Notes under the pieces: generated by a model | What the model was told of the DNA's origin: nothing | Databases searched by the model: none | The model's input: only the letters and a program-made list of their open reading frames with translations | Translations under genes and position numbers: made by a program | Assembly: GCF_026626665.1 (NCBI RefSeq) | Contig: NZ_JAPNKE010000002.1 | Location: 3,757,168 to 3,821,167 of the forward strand | From: Nannocystis pusilla | GTDB lineage: Bacteria > Myxococcota_A > Polyangia > Nannocystales > Nannocystaceae | Length of the DNA: 64,000 bases | Direction: 5' to 3' | Part shown: positions 22,067-29,008 of the stretch, piece by piece | How the letters are laid out: the number at the start of each line of letters is the position of its first letter | Numbering within the stretch: the stretch's first letter is position 1

Positions 22067-22585
22067 TCAGAAGCTCACCAGGTACGTGCAGGACGAGCCG
22101 CCCTCGTCCATGCAGCCGCCCGCGCCGTGCTCGACCAGCGCCGGCGCGCCCACGCGAGAGCAGCAGCCCTCGATGATGCCGACGTTGAGCGGGCACGGCC
22201 CGAGCGTGGTCCACACCAGAGTCGCGCTGTTGTCGTCGTCGAATTCGCAGGTGATGGTGCCCATGTCGGCGGCGCGGGCGTTCATGCGATAGGCCGCGTC
22301 GAGGCCCATCAGCAGGCTCTTCACGTCGTCGAGGCCGGGCGGGAACGGGGCCGTCTCGATCATCTTCTTGCCGACGGCGATCATCGCCCCGCGGCCGATC
22401 TTCTCGTAGATGGCGTAGTAGATTTCCATCGCCCAGTTGATGTCGTACCAGCGCGTCGGATCGATGCGATCGACGCCGGCGTCGCGCAGCACCTTCTGCA
22501 CGAGCGCCTCCGAATGACCCAAGCCGAGCAAGAAAGAATAGAGCGCCGCGCCGTTGTATTGTCCGCCCGACTTGCTGGTTCGCAT
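22067..22585 (-). CDS. hypothetical small Cys-containing protein, operonic with STAS gene
   Basis: 173 aa from MRTSKSGGQYNG... It ends 14 nt upstream of the STAS gene on the same strand. No family recognised. Confidence 0.5.
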   Translation of the reverse strand: MRTSKSGGQYNGAALYSFLLGLGHSEALVQKVLRDAGVDRIDPTRWYDINWAMEIYYAIYEKIGRGAMIAVGKKMIETAPFPPGLDDVKSLLMGLDAAYRMNARAADMGTITCEFDDDNSATLVWTTLGPCPLNVGIIEGCCSRVGAPALVEHGAGGCMDEGGSSCTYLVSF

Positions 22586-23116
22586 GAATCCTCCGACCGC
22601 TGGCGCCTCCGCGCGCGACCCGACGCCTCGAAGCATCGAAAGCGCCGCGCACGACCCTTCCCCGTGTACCGCGAACCCCGCCTCAATGTCCAGCTCGCTG
22701 CACGGGCTGCGCTGGATTGCGCCGCGTCTTCGTCGGCCTCTTCAATTGGCGGGACCCGTCGACGCGGGCCGCGGGACGTCCCCCGATGAGGCGGCCGGGC
22801 CGCCCCGCGGTCGCTTCGTTGGCGCTTGCGGAGCGACTTCGCCGCGAAGCTTCACCCGACGGGCGAATCTCGCCTCGGAACGCGTTCTATCGCCGCTGCC
22901 GGCGCCGCGTGGTCGGGTGTGCCGAAGCGGCGCACCCGCCGCCGCCGCGGACCGGCGCCCGCACCGGCGCGACCCATCGTGCCGCGAATGAACAATGACT
23001 CATGGAAGTCGCTCGCACCACAATCATGAGGCGTCCGCGCCGCCGGCGAACCCACGATTCGCCGGTCCCGCCATTTCGCTCCGCCGCGAATCATCGCTGG
23101 CGCGATCGTCCGCCCG

Positions 23117-24160
23117 CTACGTCGCCAGCCCTGCCTCGCGCACCAGCAGCGCCACCAGCTCCTCCGCCGGCAGCGCCCGACCCATCGGCGCGCCCTGCCC
23201 GGCCCACAGCTGCATGAGGTCGGCCCGCCCCTGCGCCGCCGCGGCCGCGCGGACGTCCCGGGTGAGGCCTTGCTGCTGCGGGAACGGGGCCGCCTCGACC
23301 GCCGCGAACGCCTCGCTGAAGCGATTGCGAACGCCTCGCGCCGGCCGGCCGCTGAACGCCCGCGTCACCACCGTGCGCCACGCCGTCGCCAGCGCGGCGC
23401 GGTGCGCCTCGCTCGTGCCGGCTTCGGGGCAGGTCATGAACGCGGTGCCGAGCTGCACCCCCGCCGCGCCGATGTCGAGCATCGCCCGGATCGCGCGACC
23501 CTCCATGATCCCGCCGGCCGCGATCACCGGCACCTGCACGCGCGCCGCGATCTGGGGCACCAGAGTGATGGTCCCGACCAGCCCGTCCTCGAACGCGCCG
23601 AGGAAGGTCCCGCGATGCCCGCCCGCCTCGGCCCCCTGCGCACACACGGCGTCGACCCCGAGCGCCGCCAGCACCACCGCCTCCTCGACCGTCGTCGCCG
23701 TCCCGATCACCGCGATCGAGCGCGCGTGCAGGGCCTCGATCTGGGCCCGCGTCGGCGCCCCGAACGTGAAGCTGAACACCGCCGGCCGGATCTGCAGCAC
23801 CGCCTCGAGCTGCGCCTCGAACTCCGGCGCCGCGCGGCCGGGCGGCGCCGGCGAGGGCAAGCCGAGCTCGCGGCGGAACTCGGCCAGGACGGGCGACACG
23901 CGCGCCGTCGCCGCCGGATCGTCGGGCGCGTCGGCGCGGACGAACAGGTTGAGCGCGAACGGCTGCGACGTCAGCGAGCGCAACTTCGCCGCCGTCGCCT
24001 CGATCTCCTGCGGCATCATGTAAGCGCAGCCCAGCGAGCCCAGCCCGCCCGCGTTCGACACCGCGGCCGCGAGCGCGGGCGTGTCGGGCCCGCCCGCCAT
24101 CGGCGCCTGTACGATCGGCCATCTCGTCGGCAACGCGGGCGTCGTTCGTCGGTCGGTCAT
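23117..24160 (-). CDS. nitronate monooxygenase (NMO/2-nitropropane dioxygenase family)
   Basis: WPIVQAPMAGG is the FMN-binding N-terminal motif, ...GAEAGGHRG... the active-site region, and AGGIMEGRAIRAMLDIGAAGVQLGTAF the C-terminal barrel. Confidence 0.85.
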   Translation of the reverse strand: MTDRRTTPALPTRWPIVQAPMAGGPDTPALAAAVSNAGGLGSLGCAYMMPQEIEATAAKLRSLTSQPFALNLFVRADAPDDPAATARVSPVLAEFRRELGLPSPAPPGRAAPEFEAQLEAVLQIRPAVFSFTFGAPTRAQIEALHARSIAVIGTATTVEEAVVLAALGVDAVCAQGAEAGGHRGTFLGAFEDGLVGTITLVPQIAARVQVPVIAAGGIMEGRAIRAMLDIGAAGVQLGTAFMTCPEAGTSEAHRAALATAWRTVVTRAFSGRPARGVRNRFSEAFAAVEAAPFPQQQGLTRDVRAAAAAQGRADLMQLWAGQGAPMGRALPAEELVALLVREAGLAT

Positions 24161-24271
24161 CGCCGACGAGCATGCATCACCCTCGGGCGTCCGCCCACGA
24201 CGAACTCTTCCGTCTTCTTCGTGACCCGTGCGATTCGGGCCTGCGGCCGTCGCATCGCGTAAGGTGAGCCC

Positions 24272-25270
24272 GTGGTCCCGTTCTCCGTCCTCGACCTCGC
24301 ACCGATCGCCCAGGGCACCGACGCCGGCACGGCCCTGCGCAGCACGCTCGAACTCGCCCGGCACGCCGAGAAGCTCGGCTTTCACCGCTTCTGGCTGGCC
24401 GAGCACCACAACATGCCGGGCATCGCCAGCGCCGCGACCGCCGTCGTCATCGCCCACGTCGCCGGCGGCACCAGCAAGATCCGCGTCGGCGCCGGCGGCA
24501 TCATGTTGCCCAACCACGCGCCGCTCGTCATCGCCGAGCAGTTCGGCACCCTCGACGCATTGTTCCCCGGCCGCATCGACCTCGGCCTCGGCCGCGCCCC
24601 CGGCACCGACATGCGGACCACCCGCGCCTTGCGGCGCAACCTCGCCGGCGACGTCGACAACTTCCCCGAAGACGTCGGCGAGCTGCTCGGCTACTTCCGC
24701 CCGGTCGCGCCCGGTCAGGCCGTCCAGGCGGTCCCGGGGGCCGGCGCCGACATCGAGGTGTGGCTGCTCGGCTCGAGCCTCTACGGGGCCCAGCTCGCCG
24801 GCATGCTCGGCCTGCCGTACGCCTTCGCCTCGCACTTCGCCCCGGCGGCGCTGATGCGGGCCATCGAAGTCTATCGCCATCACTTCCGCCCGAGCGAGCG
24901 GCTCGACCGGCCGCACCTCATGGTCGCCGCCAACGTCATCGCCGCCGACACCGACGCCGAGGCGCGGCGCTTGCTCAGCTCGCTGCAGCAGATGTTCGTC
25001 TCGCTGCGGACCGGTCGGCCCGGTCTGTTGCCGCCGCCGATCGAGGGCTACGACGCCCGCCTGGCCCCGCACGAGCGCGCGATCCTCGACGAGGTCCTGT
25101 CGTGCTCGTTCATCGGCGCGCCCGACACGGTCCACGCCGGCCTGCAGGGCTTCTTGGCCCGCACCGGCGCCGATGAGCTCATCATCACCGCGCAGATCTT
25201 CGACCCGGCCGCCCGCCTGCGCTCCTACGAGATCGCCGCCGACGTCCGCGACCGCCTCCACCATTGGTAG
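24272..25270 (+). CDS. LLM-class (luciferase-like) flavin-dependent oxidoreductase
   Basis: [11 protein letters not shown] and [12 protein letters not shown] are signature LLM motifs. The track ORF uses a GTG start. Confidence 0.85.
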
Positions 25271-25322
25271 ATCCTACTTTCCTTTCCGCATGAGGCGGAG
25301 AAGTTGGGCAAGACCCCCGTTC

Positions 25323-25355
25323 AAACCGTGCATGCGAATTTCCCGCACACGGCTT
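25323..25355 (-). other. group II intron domain V (catalytic hairpin)
   Basis: The minus-strand RNA AAGCCGUGUGCGG-GAAA-UUCGCAUGCACGGUUU is a 34-nt hairpin with the AGC triad and a GNRA-like loop. Confidence 0.8.
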
Positions 25356-25380
25356 ACCGGTGGTCTCTCGGGCCGTCGCA

Positions 25381-26730
25381 TTACGCGGCCTCCGGGTACT
25401 GCACGGTCCCACGTAGTCGGTGGAGCCCGTGGTCATGGAAGAAGTCGCTTGTCCAACCTTCGACGTCGTTGGCTCGCAGGTGTCGGCCATGGCGCCGCAC
25501 CATGAAGTGCGTGAGCCGGCGCCATACGTACGTGTCGATCTGATTGAATTTCGCGGCGGCGTTCCCGGTGCGGAAGTAGTTACCCCAGCCGTGCAGCACG
25601 GGGTTGATGTCGCGGATGAGCACCCGGACATCTTTGACCCCGTTGCGGTTCGAGCCAGTTAGCTCCTTCACGCGGTGCCGAACCCGCGTCATGCTGCGCT
25701 GCGAAGGCCAGCGCTGGAGGAAGTACACCCTGCGATGCTCCTTCTCCCAGATCGGCCCGGACATGCGCTTGCGCAGGTGACAGCCGAGGAAGTCGAAGCC
25801 TTGCCGTCCCCGGCTCAGCTCGACGCGCCTCGTCTTTTCGGGATGCAGCTCCAGCTTGAGCCGTCGCAGGATCTCGCGGACCCTGACCTCGGCCTCCTCG
25901 CACGCCTTCGCGGTCCTGCACAGGATCACGAAGTCGTCGCAGTAGCGCACAAGCTCGCCCAGGTGGGCGTGTCGTCGCTGCCACAGCTTGTCGAGGACGC
26001 CGAGGTAGATGTTCGACAGCAGCGGTGAGATGACGCCGCCCTGGGGTGTCCCCGAGAGCATCGCCGTCACTTCGCTGTCCTCCATCACACCGGCTTCGAG
26101 CCACTGCCGCACCAGCTTGAGGACCCTGCGATCCGAGATTCGCATCGCCACGAGCTTCATCAGTCGCTCGTGATCGATGCTGCCGAAGTAGTCGCGGATG
26201 TCGGCGTCGAGCACGTGGTTCCCACCGCGCGCTCCCAGCACGCGCAAGCGCTCGAGCGCCTGCGTCGCACTGCGCTTCGGCCGGAAGCCGTACGAGCACG
26301 GAAGGAAGTCCGCCTCGAATATCGGCTCCAGCACCAGCTTCGCCGCCATCTGCACCACTCGGTCCCGGACTGTCGGGATCCCCAGCGGCCGCTTCTTCCC
26401 GTCCGCCTTCGGGATGTACCGCCGCATGACCGCGCTCGGCCGGTACGTCCCGCCCTTGAGTTCGTCGGCGATCTCTTCGAGGAAGCGATCGACGCCGTAC
26501 TCCTCCACCTCGGCCAGCGTCTGTCTGTCGACGCCCGCCGAGCCCCTGTTCCTCTTCACCCGCCTCCATGCTTCCCTCAGGACGTCACGCCTGAAGATGC
26601 GGTCGTACAGCGCATGGAAGCGGCGACCCGGATGCCGCTTGGCCGCGGCCCACAGTCGGCGTCGAAGTTCTCGCACTTTGTCACGCGGCCTGCGCCGCGT
26701 GGGGTTGTTGGGACCTGTCCTGCAGGCCAT
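25381..26730 (-). CDS. group II intron-encoded reverse transcriptase/maturase
   Basis: RT domains 0-7 are present (RRLW...GVD..., PLGIPTVRDRVVQ, YCDDFVIL = YxDD). The maturase/X domain reads FLGCHL...WGNYFR. An alternative upstream ATG lies at 26808. Confidence 0.9.
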   Translation of the reverse strand: MACRTGPNNPTRRRPRDKVRELRRRLWAAAKRHPGRRFHALYDRIFRRDVLREAWRRVKRNRGSAGVDRQTLAEVEEYGVDRFLEEIADELKGGTYRPSAVMRRYIPKADGKKRPLGIPTVRDRVVQMAAKLVLEPIFEADFLPCSYGFRPKRSATQALERLRVLGARGGNHVLDADIRDYFGSIDHERLMKLVAMRISDRRVLKLVRQWLEAGVMEDSEVTAMLSGTPQGGVISPLLSNIYLGVLDKLWQRRHAHLGELVRYCDDFVILCRTAKACEEAEVRVREILRRLKLELHPEKTRRVELSRGRQGFDFLGCHLRKRMSGPIWEKEHRRVYFLQRWPSQRSMTRVRHRVKELTGSNRNGVKDVRVLIRDINPVLHGWGNYFRTGNAAAKFNQIDTYVWRRLTHFMVRRHGRHLRANDVEGWTSDFFHDHGLHRLRGTVQYPEAA

Positions 26731-27299
26731 GCCCTCGCGCTTACCTTCTTCTCCGACACGACCACCCCAGGGGCCCTTCCCTCCGGCGGCGTTGTTCTGC
26801 GCCGCCATCGCCGGTACTACGACCCCCTCGGACTCCCGCTGCACAGCGCTCGACTTCGCCTTCGGCTTATACGAGTCGCCTCGCCCCGACACGGGCCGTG
26901 CAGACGGGCCTCTCCTGTTCCGCATCGCTCCTTGAACGCGTGCTGCGCCCCGTACCCCGGGAGGACCCACCGCGCTTTCTGATCCGGATGACTGCGCGGT
27001 GGACGTGGCCTTCGCCGTGACATGAGCGGCTCGGCTCCTCCATTGTTTCTCTGTCGAGGCTGCAGGCTTCACTTCATGTTGCGGCCCGCGTTCTTGCTCC
27101 CTCCGTAGAGGCTTTTGACGCCCCGCTCGGGCCGCGAGAATCTCTCCTCGCGCCTGGGGCCTGCTACCGGGCGCTCCGGCGCCTACCCGGGCGGGACTCT
27201 CACCCGCTGGAACGGTGCAGCATGACGCGGCCGAGCCGCCCCCTTCGGGGTCCTGCTCGCCCTCGTCTTCAGGACGCACCACGCCGCCAGGTGATCCAC

Positions 27300-28046
27300 A
27301 TGTCCACCGCCAACGTCGCCGCCGATCACTACGAGCTGTACTACTGGCCGGGCATCCCCGGCCGCGGCGAGTTCGTGCGCCTCGTGTGCGAGGACGCCGG
27401 CGCCCCCTACCTCGACGTCGCCCGTCGGCCCGCCTCCGAGGGCGGCGGCGAGGCGGCGGTGGTCCGCGCGCTCGAGTCGCTGCCTGGCCTGCCCGCCTTC
27501 GCCCCGCCGCTCCTCCGCGCCGGCGAGCTGGTGATCGCCCAGACCGCCAACATCTGCGGCTTCCTCGGCGATCGCCACGACCTGTCCCCGGGGACAGAAG
27601 GCGGCCGCGCCGAGGCCATGCAGCTGCAGCTCACCGTCTCCGACCTCGTCGCCGAGGTCCACGACACGCACCACCCGATCTCCACCGCCCAGTACTACGA
27701 GGAGCAGCGCGACGCCGCCGCGCTGCGGTCCGCCGCCTTCCGCGACCAGCGGCTGCCCAAGTTCCTCGCCTACTTCGAGCGCGTCCTGCAGCGCAGCGGC
27801 GGCCCCTGGCTGCTCGGCGACGCCTGCAGCCACGCCGACCTGTCGCTGCTGCAGGCCCTGCTCGGCCTCGAGTACGCGTTCCCCCGCGCGTTCGCCCGCC
27901 AGGCCCGCCGCGTCCCCGAGCTGCTGCGCCTGCGCGACCGCGTCGCCGAGCGCCCGCGGATCGCCGCCTACCTGGCCTCGCCGCGCCGGCTGGCCTTCAA
28001 CGAGAACGGCATCTTCCGCCGCTACCCCGAGCTCGACCCGGCCTGA
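27300..28046 (+). CDS. glutathione S-transferase family protein
   Basis: MSTANVAADHYELYYWPGIPGRGEFVRLV is a GST N-terminal thioredoxin-like fold. Length ~248 aa. Confidence 0.8.
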   Translation: MSTANVAADHYELYYWPGIPGRGEFVRLVCEDAGAPYLDVARRPASEGGGEAAVVRALESLPGLPAFAPPLLRAGELVIAQTANICGFLGDRHDLSPGTEGGRAEAMQLQLTVSDLVAEVHDTHHPISTAQYYEEQRDAAALRSAAFRDQRLPKFLAYFERVLQRSGGPWLLGDACSHADLSLLQALLGLEYAFPRAFARQARRVPELLRLRDRVAERPRIAAYLASPRRLAFNENGIFRRYPELDPA

Positions 28047-28126: not shown

Positions 28127-28849
28127 CTACGCCCCGATCCCGCAGCACGACAGCGCCTTGGCCTCGAGCTGCTCGAAGGAGTCGCAGATCGGCTCCGACG
28201 CGCACTCGCCGAACTTGACGTCGTCCTCGAAGCACTCGCAGGCCGCCTCGGTGCAGCGCATCGTCAGCGTCGGCTCGCCGGCGCACTCGCGCGACCACTC
28301 GCACATCGACCCGCTGCCGCCGCCGCCGATCGAGCACGAGTTGCCGAAGCCGCACACGTCCTCCTGGGCGATGGCCTCGTCGGTGCAGGGCCCCTCCTTG
28401 CCCTGCTCCATGTCGTCGATCTGCTGGCACGTCAGGCCCGCCTGACAGTCCATCGTCGCCGTCGCGGCCGCCTGGCACTCGCCCTCGAGCTCGGCCAGGT
28501 CCGCCTCACAATCCTCCGGACAGGTCATCGCCTCTTCGGGCGTGAGGCCGACGCACTTGGCCAGCATCACGCAGTACTTCTGACAGGTCGTCGCCGGTGG
28601 CTCGCCGGCGCTCGTGCTGGTCTCGCCGGGGTCCGTCGACTCGGACTCGCCGGTGGTCGCCGGCGTCGTCGGTGACATCGTCGTGGTCGGCTCCGTGGCG
28701 CCGTCGGTCGACGTCCCCGACTCGGTCGCCGACGCAGTGTCGCCGCCGCTCGTCGACGGCTCCGTGGCGCCGTCGGTGTCGTTCTTCTCGCCGGGACAGG
28801 CCCCGAGCAGCAGGGCCGTGAGGATGAGTCCGTGTCTGTGATGAAGCAT
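28127..28849 (-). CDS. lipoprotein with Thr-rich linker and Cys-rich domain
   Basis: MLHHRHGLILTALLLGACPG has a lipobox, followed by a T/E/S-rich linker. The C-terminal domain has ~20 Cys. Confidence 0.65.
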   Translation of the reverse strand: MLHHRHGLILTALLLGACPGEKNDTDGATEPSTSGGDTASATESGTSTDGATEPTTTMSPTTPATTGESESTDPGETSTSAGEPPATTCQKYCVMLAKCVGLTPEEAMTCPEDCEADLAELEGECQAAATATMDCQAGLTCQQIDDMEQGKEGPCTDEAIAQEDVCGFGNSCSIGGGGSGSMCEWSRECAGEPTLTMRCTEAACECFEDDVKFGECASEPICDSFEQLEAKALSCCGIGA

Positions 28850-29008
28850 GTCGGTTCTCGCTGGCCCGCGGCCTGGCAACCCGGCGCGCGGCGACCCCCG
28901 AAACCGCGCGCCCCCGCAGGCCATTCCTGTGGGTCCGATCGGCGTCGGGTCGGAACTGCTCGCGCCCCTTCACCCTCGCAGTGGCCGTACATCGGTTATT
29001 CTGTCGCC

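Follow-up and report, generated by a model that had tools for sequence, protein, structure and literature searches.

A full-length group II intron lying antisense in the last codons of a Nannocystis pusilla oxidoreductase gene, and its relatives at start codons

The locus and its intron

The DNA analysed here is a 64,000-nt stretch of the Nannocystis pusilla genome (assembly GCF_026626665.1, contig NZ_JAPNKE010000002.1, positions 3,757,168 to 3,821,167), hereafter the window, to which all coordinates refer. At the junction of a gene for an LLM-class oxidoreductase and a gene for a glutathione S-transferase (GST), both on the + strand, it carries a group II intron on the − strand, antisense to its two neighbours as an earlier note made from the letters of the window had described (Table 1). 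The element is of a known kind, a group II intron whose reverse transcriptase (RT)/maturase has no endonuclease domain. Here we delimit the intron, describe the event that brought it to this locus and compare it with a clade of relatives found at start codons.

Table 1. Features of the intron and the two genes at its flanks (window coordinates; intron features read on the − strand)
Feature	Position	Strand	Basis
LLM-class oxidoreductase gene	24272–25270	+	Pfam Bac_luciferase (E = 5e-45), TIGR03558
GST gene, true start ATG 27300	27300–28046	+	GST_C_3
Whole group II intron, 2,018 nt, 5′ GUGCG...CUACCAAUG 3′	25262–27279	−	Uninterrupted-site comparison and independent copies
5′ flank of the insertion (target), TCACCT GGCGGC GTG	27280–27297	−	Near-match to family TAnnnT-N6-RTG
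5′ splice-site consensus GUGCG	27275–27279	−	Invariant in all copies
Domain I, ~360 nt	26913–27274	−	RNAalifold consensus, Rfam D1D4-4/D1D4-6
Exon-binding site 1 (EBS1) hairpin, loop CUCAUGUCA at 27026–27018	27008–27035	−	Loop covaries with 5′ exon end
Domain II	26831–26912	−	RNAalifold consensus
Domain III	26769–26827	−	RNAalifold consensus
Intron-encoded RT/maturase in domain IV, 449 aa plus stop	25381–26730	−	TIGR04416, RVT_1, GIIM
Extended open frame, 633 codons, exon GTG through domains I–III into RT	25381–27282	−	Stop-free in this frame
Domain V, 33 nt: AGC triad, 2-nt bulge, 5-nt loop GAAAU	25323–25355	−	Rfam and compensatory pairs
Domain VI with bulged A at 25268	25266–25318	−	Covarying stem
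3′ tail AAUG, terminal triplet AUG 25264–25262	25262–25265	−	Family 3′ ends

In a profile search, the intron-encoded protein matched TIGR04416 with 418 bits (cutoff 300) over model positions 2–353 of 353, together with Pfam RVT_1 and GIIM, the latter representing the maturase X domain. Its frame opens with the ATG at 26730 and closes with the stop at 25381–25383, and its active-site motif is YCDD, in agreement with the complete RT/maturase reported earlier. Neither the Pfam nor the TIGR profiles gave a match to an endonuclease or HNH domain, and the protein ends about 30 aa past the X domain. It is 100% identical to P0001, an NCBI entry for a N. pusilla 'group II intron reverse transcriptase/maturase', and the element is thus already annotated at the protein level. 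An exact-sequence look-up of the RT returned no gene on record; relatives were reached through other protein clusters. Sequence matches in the PDB (GsI-IIC, E.r. IIC, T.el4h and LtrA, at 157–185 bits) did not discriminate the class. The RT also drew weak, sub-threshold matches from the retron and Drt models, as a retron or defence-associated RT outside any group II intron might, but these fell far under their cutoffs (for example, 63 bits versus 235), whereas TIGR04416 scored above its own, and ribozyme domains I–VI flank the RT open reading frame (ORF). We regard this reading as refuted and give it virtually no probability.

Two stretches of the 5′ part reached the gathering score in Rfam (group-II-D1D4-4, 27209–27074, 84 bits; D1D4-6, 27061–26954, 50 bits), as did domains V and VI with Intron_gpII RF00029 (25357–25263, 42.3 bits versus a gathering score of 40). 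The domain V sequence quoted in the earlier note matches the window exactly at one place (chance expectation 0), and the GUGCG that it had set about 550 nt upstream of the ORF lies 549 nt from the conserved ATG. For the 5′ part, RNAalifold applied to 21 family members gave 132 consensus pairs, and 85 of these show double compensatory changes. Across 32 family 3′ ends, domain V has compensatory pairs and a loop that is GAAAU or GAAAA with a covarying closing pair, and domain VI has up to 17 double changes per stem pair. In all 32, the base corresponding to A25268 is an unpaired A, 6 nt before the last base; it is the presumed branch point. Together, the covariance models and the family alignment located domains I–III and VI and placed the 5′ boundary, in line with an intact, full-length intron that retains all six domains and a complete RT/maturase, and at odds with the degenerate relic that the earlier note had named as the alternative.

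The hairpin in domain I that we assign as EBS1 was identified by the covariation of its loop with the exon sequence directly 5′ of the intron. In the window, CAUG (27024–27021) faces the exon end, giving GUG–CAU with one G–U pair. The loop changes together with the exon's last triplet elsewhere in the family (GUG–CAC in L089, L093 and L102; UUG–CAA in L142), and the covariation extends to 4 nt in others (UAUG–CAUA in L127; GAUG–CAUC in L001).

The insertion site

Four independent copies, one in N. bainbridge (L001) and three in N. punicea (L002–L004), are ~93% identical to the window at the nucleotide level over 27281–25262. Their flanks are unrelated except for a common TG directly 5′ of GUGCG, and similarity ends sharply on both sides; the conserved block runs from GUGCG through ...GGAUCUACCAAUG, the last base of which is 25262. 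Uninterrupted sites were found through a search with the LLM protein and contig look-ups. In Nannocystis sp. RBIL2 (L085) the site reads CTC CAC CAC GCT GCC AGG TGA tcctc ATG, with the GST gene adjoining, and another N. pusilla strain (L184) has the same sequence, with flanks that are 985/990 and 755/767 identical to the window. Excising exactly 2,018 bp from the window regenerates the uninterrupted sequence of L085 and L184. Both the further copies and the empty site that the earlier note had proposed to look for were thus found in other Nannocystis genomes. A search with the LLM protein on the genome contigs listed matches of at most 75% identity, none with a GST gene adjoining.

The comparison places the insertion point four codons ahead of the original LLM TGA, changing the C-terminus from HHAAR to HHW: the window protein has 332 aa and ends in ...RDRLHHW, whereas the orthologues obtained by protein search have 334 aa and end in ...RDRLHHAAR. 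The last 9 nt of the present LLM gene (25262–25270, comprising the AT of the final His codon, TGG and TAG) are intron sequence read antisense. Its stop codon TAG (25268–25270) is the complement of the CUA in domain VI, the A of which (25268) is the presumed branch adenosine.

The earlier note had set the insertion exactly downstream of the LLM stop codon, in intergenic sequence, with the 3′ end near 25271; both genes would then be untouched. The LLM ORF does look complete by profile (positions 6–333 of a 335-position model) and domain VI ends beside the LLM TAG. All copies, however, stay identical for 9 nt beyond 25271, through CUACCAAUG, which moves the 3′ boundary by 9 nt to 25262 and the insert into the last four LLM codons, and the uninterrupted LLM alleles encode 334 aa ending in HHAAR. 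In L085 and L184 the GST start lies 5 nt downstream of the LLM stop, which leaves no spacer to insert into. The spacer placement is therefore refuted, and we consider it extremely improbable.

Among the Nannocystis compared, the 332-aa LLM allele occurs only in the genome of the window. The 334-aa allele is present in N. exedens, N. punicea, Nannocystis sp. ILAH1, Nannocystis sp. RBIL2 and two other N. pusilla strains, that is, in all other Nannocystis genomes examined, and six other full-length Nannocystis LLM proteins in the cluster have C-termini HHAAR or similar. The RT protein is represented by three GenBank protein accessions from one N. pusilla record, which implies at least three identical RT copies in the genome. 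The uniqueness of the 332-aa allele and the identical RT genes indicate that the insertion is recent, in keeping with the recent mobile-element activity proposed earlier. The intron has a G+C content of 0.65–0.68, compared with 0.72–0.75 for its flanks.

Relatives at start codons

The clade to which the intron belongs was followed to ~55% RT identity by an RT scan of metagenomes (L087–L166) and contig look-ups (L167–L177), which yielded dozens of independent insertion sites. It spans myxobacteria, the actinomycete Embleya and many metagenome contigs, and it appears to be widespread in soil. An intron on a Leptospira plasmid (52% RT identity) was considered as a member of the sub-clade and rejected; its 3′ end differs and it does not lie in a start-codon context.

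Relatives at or above ~55% RT identity end in ...CUACC(A/U)AUG, apart from two that end in GUG and one in AAG. Among the 32 aligned 3′ ends, which were preselected to end in UG, 30 are AUG and two GUG; the AAG belongs to one further copy (L096). Pairing of the terminal AUG with EBS1 was considered and set aside, as most introns whose EBS1 is CAC nevertheless end in AUG. An ordinary gene's N-terminus follows the intron end directly. The intron's terminal ATG is the called start of the downstream gene at three of the four Nannocystis loci and at nine of the ten places listed for RT cluster P0030. When host ORFs were read from the terminal AUG, six of the eight tested matched full-length NCBIfam profiles, with residue 1–10 aligned to profile position 1–7. 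The host families aligned from their start in this way are arginase, RuvC, QueC, Maf, Phd and AroC, and several other host ORFs open with signal peptides.

The 5′ side of the insertions carries a second signal. Of 36 distinct 5′ flanks, 25 end in ATG, seven in GTG and one in TTG. Position −15 is T in 20 flanks, −14 is A in 27 and −10 is T in 27. The resulting TAnnnT hexamer stands 6 nt from the start codon at 20 sites and 7 nt at seven, never 0–5 nt, and is extended by TGn at nine sites. No Shine–Dalgarno-like signal is visible in these 36 flanks, and they hold no conserved upstream hairpin; what is conserved is TAnnnT-N6-RTG. With a −10-like element 6–7 nt ahead of the start codon, transcription would begin at the first base of that codon, as in leaderless genes, and we infer that the flanks bear the signature of leaderless-gene promoters.

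Two further candidates for recognition or expression signals were weighed. A GCCACG sequence after the EBS1 hairpin could pair, as an EBS2 for the upstream hexamer, with CGUGGC at some sites; identical introns, however, occupy sites with differing hexamers and with 6- or 7-nt spacers, and the pairing is at most a candidate. A conserved Shine–Dalgarno sequence in domain VI was rejected: the window copy has AGGA there, and across the family its position is variable stem sequence.

The third signal is an open frame through the ribozyme. Of 32 distinct introns, 24 have no stop over intron nucleotides 1–480 in the frame set by the host start codon; each of the other two frames contains 152 stops and is never stop-free. 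Both ends are defined in 29 introns, and in 19 of these the start-codon frame continues unbroken into the RT. Four lower-GC members keep it open for 160–163 codons up to a single stop, directly after which the RT frame begins in the same frame. Insertions and deletions in a variable 5′ stem are multiples of three in the members checked (24 nt in L088, 42 nt in L104 and 45 nt in L113). In the window the extended frame opens at the GTG (27282–27280) just 5′ of GUGCG and would encode an N-terminal extension MVRPEDEGEQDPEGGG... ahead of the RT. Because domains I–III are stop-free in the start-codon frame, the RT could be translated from the host's 5′-terminal AUG.

Several members show particular arrangements. 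In L095 (positions 1–2138) two copies stand in tandem, the 5′ flank of one being the 3′ end of the other (...GGAGUCAGGGUCUACCAAUG directly followed by GUGCG, after its CUACCAAUG); the intron's own terminus thus serves as a target for a second insertion. L168 and L175 carry the same RT and share the 5′ exon GCGGGGGGCAAGTGATAGCGTTGCGCGATG, and their downstream ORFs differ (MSRHPLQ... versus MSTDRYH...), which could stem from recombination between copies of the intron or from a metagenome assembly that is chimeric at the repeat. In L087, L088, L094, L102 and L128 the long frame passes domain V to reach a UAG within GUAGGAUCUACCAAUG, some 10 nt short of the terminal AUG; termination there, beside the host start codon, could provide translational coupling. 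A relative on an Embleya sp. plasmid (L182, positions 618–640, 63% RT identity) ends in CUACCAAUG ahead of an ORF, and its 5′ flank duplicates the first 8 nt of the intron (GTGCGTCC ATG followed by GTGCGTCC...); the duplicate may be the remnant of an earlier insertion or of a deletion.

At the level of sequence, the overall pattern is well supported: these introns target start codons at leaderless-type promoters, bring a replacement AUG of their own and keep the ribozyme open in the host frame. The fuller proposal is that the clade is specialised for the start codons of leaderless genes: it would insert in the sense orientation after ATG, GTG or TTG, using EBS1 as an anticodon-like CAU that matches the captured start codon; its own terminal AUG would restore a start codon to the host ORF; and stop-free domains I–III would let it hijack both promoter and translation start. 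We hold this proposal tentatively, as slightly less probable than its negation.

The window copy as an off-target event

In the window target, positions −15 and −10 are T, −4 is C and the GTG is in register, but the A of the family motif at −14 is missing. Given this resemblance, the intron might have homed in the sense orientation to the start codon of a real minus-strand gene, and its terminal ATG does open an ORF of 715 codons (23117–25264, − strand). That ORF, however, is the antisense of the LLM gene and of a nitronate monooxygenase gene (Pfam E = 5e-45 and 6e-85, respectively), long antisense ORFs are expected at 72–75% GC, and the uninterrupted locus is a plain LLM–GST pair. Cognate homing is therefore most improbable here, and the absence of a real gene downstream on the minus strand identifies the window copy as an off-target retrotransposition into a near-cognate sequence. 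As a single case, the site favours recognition of DNA sequence over recognition of an active promoter.

Each of the eight 8-kb bins of the window has a negative + strand GC skew, which makes the intron sense strand the G-rich strand; it would then have the leading-strand sequence and be the lagging-strand template. For other introns without an endonuclease, priming of cDNA synthesis by a nascent strand at a replication fork is established (PMC4424553, PMC8914252), and the orientation of the window copy is the one expected if a nascent lagging strand serves as primer. In the event that we propose, an excised lariat–protein particle would have reverse-spliced into the G-rich strand after ...TCACCT-GGCGGC-GUG, and cDNA synthesis would have been primed by the nascent DNA strand at the replication fork.

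For the host genes, the antisense orientation means that the intron cannot be removed from LLM or GST mRNA, and the LLM–GST junction is now parted by a 2-kb antisense intron. The LLM C-terminus is poorly conserved, other orthologues ending in RDRLR, RDRLASS or HRAAT. Scanning the locus for promoters and terminators yielded nothing informative overall. The sole terminator-like hairpin (27056–27070, +) lies inside the antisense intron, one being found against 0.9 expected by chance; if functional, it would add to polarity on GST.

Taken as a whole, we consider it very probable that the window holds a full-length, apparently functional intron that recently retrotransposed to an off-target, near-cognate site, antisense within the last four LLM codons, in one N. 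pusilla strain. Several points weigh against this reading. A 5-nt UGGUG repeat (intron strand) is present at both junctions and leaves the position of the insert formally ambiguous; the intron was placed at 27279–25262 because the canonical GUGCG was taken as its 5′ end and on the strength of the family comparisons. With that 5′ end, the length of the insert requires a final G, and the 3′ end is UG where the norm for group II introns is AY. The replication-strand assignment derives solely from local GC skew. The promoter scan of the locus found no sigma-70-like promoter upstream of the intron on the minus strand, so this copy may be poorly expressed, or expressed by read-through only. Its transcription, splicing and present mobility are at most presumed; the evidence for self-splicing and retromobility is indirect and consists of the presence/absence polymorphism and the identical copies.

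An intron shifted by 3 nt (RUG-GUGCG...CUACCA) was also tried as a resolution of the ambiguous junction and rejected: it needs ATG where both uninterrupted sites read GTG, and among near-identical copies the triplet on the 5′ side is either ATG or GTG, whereas the 3′ AUG does not change.

The antisense position, the lack of a promoter-like site upstream and the missing A of TAnnnT would also suit a dead relic, a whole-looking but inactive fossil insertion disabled by a point lesion or by want of a promoter. Against this stand an intact RT frame, shared at 100% identity by at least three copies in the genome, and the preservation of the AGC triad, the domain V bulge, the bulged A, GUGCG and the EBS1 loop. 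The insertion is moreover absent from strains with flanks 98.4–99.5% identical, which leaves little time for decay. We consider a relic unlikely, and prefer a recent insertion of an apparently functional intron.

Two conserved neighbouring genes, which the uninterrupted locus L085 has as well, gave no Pfam match. One (22067–22636, − strand) encodes 189 aa and adjoins a STAS-domain gene; the other (28127–28924, − strand) encodes a predicted Cys-rich lipoprotein with a Thr/Ser/Gly-rich linker.

Comparison with known introns

The nearest kind are endonuclease-less, IIB-like bacterial introns of the E/F radiation, such as Rh.sp.I1 (Rhodococcus pRHL1) and Ni.ha.I1, which were listed as 'unclassified' and as g3, formerly class F, respectively (Toro and Martinez-Abarca 2013, PMC3552965). 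In pairwise comparisons with references from that study, the window RT is 47% identical to Rh.sp.I1, 42% to Ni.ha.I1 and 34–39% to g1 members. Like Rh.sp.I1 and Ni.ha.I1, the window intron combines an RT and maturase without a DNA-binding/endonuclease region with a ribozyme of ~670 nt. Its domain V has a 5-nt loop, as in IIE and IIF introns, in which such a loop in place of GNRA is a hallmark (PMC3753933). Unlike the window intron, Rh.sp.I1 has neither a start-codon setting nor a terminal CUACCAAUG, and the YCDD of the window RT contrasts with YADD in the four reference introns compared. Membership of the g2 variety is excluded, because g2 introns carry FADD in RT5 (PMC3552965).

A lineage of IIB1 introns at start and stop codons has been described (Michel et al. 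2007, summarised in PMC12584367); it has a CL1 RT with an endonuclease domain and a 300–700-nt insertion in domain I, its insertion can replace a codon by an equivalent one, and its mechanism of colonisation is described as unknown (PMC12584367). The window clade differs from it in having no endonuclease domain (449-aa protein), in its E/F-type domain V and in having, instead of the domain I insertion, a variable stem of ~44 nt that is absent in some members, within a 5′ part of 549 nt in all. It is also tied specifically to start codons after a −10-like hexamer, unlike the IIB1 lineage. We found no description of this targeting habit in the searchable literature, which did not cover Michel et al. 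2007; priority is uncertain.

Other introns share single traits with the window intron. RmInt1 (class D, Sinorhizobium meliloti) likewise encodes a protein without an endonuclease domain. It recognises its target through short pairing between EBS and intron-binding sites (IBS) and a few upstream positions. It differs from the window intron in its ORF class, in having an insertion sequence and not start codons as its homing target, and in its free-standing ORF. Its insertion, primed at the replication fork, is into the lagging-strand template (PMC8914252). Class C (IIC) introns resemble the window intron in using a 3–4-nt IBS1 and a generic genomic target signal instead of a long homing site, but their targets are terminator or attC hairpins and their domain I is much smaller, that of the window intron being of IIB size. 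In the yeast mitochondrial introns aI1 and aI2, the intron frame is continuous with the upstream exon and the protein can be made from the host gene's start codon. These organellar IIA introns, unlike the window clade, have endonuclease domains and long upstream exons, whereas the in-frame exon of the clade is the start codon alone.

Significance

Taken by itself, the locus is modest: an ordinary, already annotated retroelement that offers a clean, dated example of an insertion rewriting the end of a gene and splitting an operon. The pattern across the clade matters more. A 2015 review recognised three target specificities of bacterial group II introns, namely homing sites, terminators and attC sites (PMC4424553). 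The clade is unrelated to the IIB1 lineage and lacks an endonuclease domain, yet has the same start-codon habit, and it presents that habit through three readable signals: covariation of EBS1 with the start codon, a promoter-like hexamer at a fixed upstream distance and an open frame through the ribozyme. How an intron finds start codons would thereby become directly testable, and the clade would be a bacterial parallel to those mitochondrial introns that have their proteins translated from the upstream exon.

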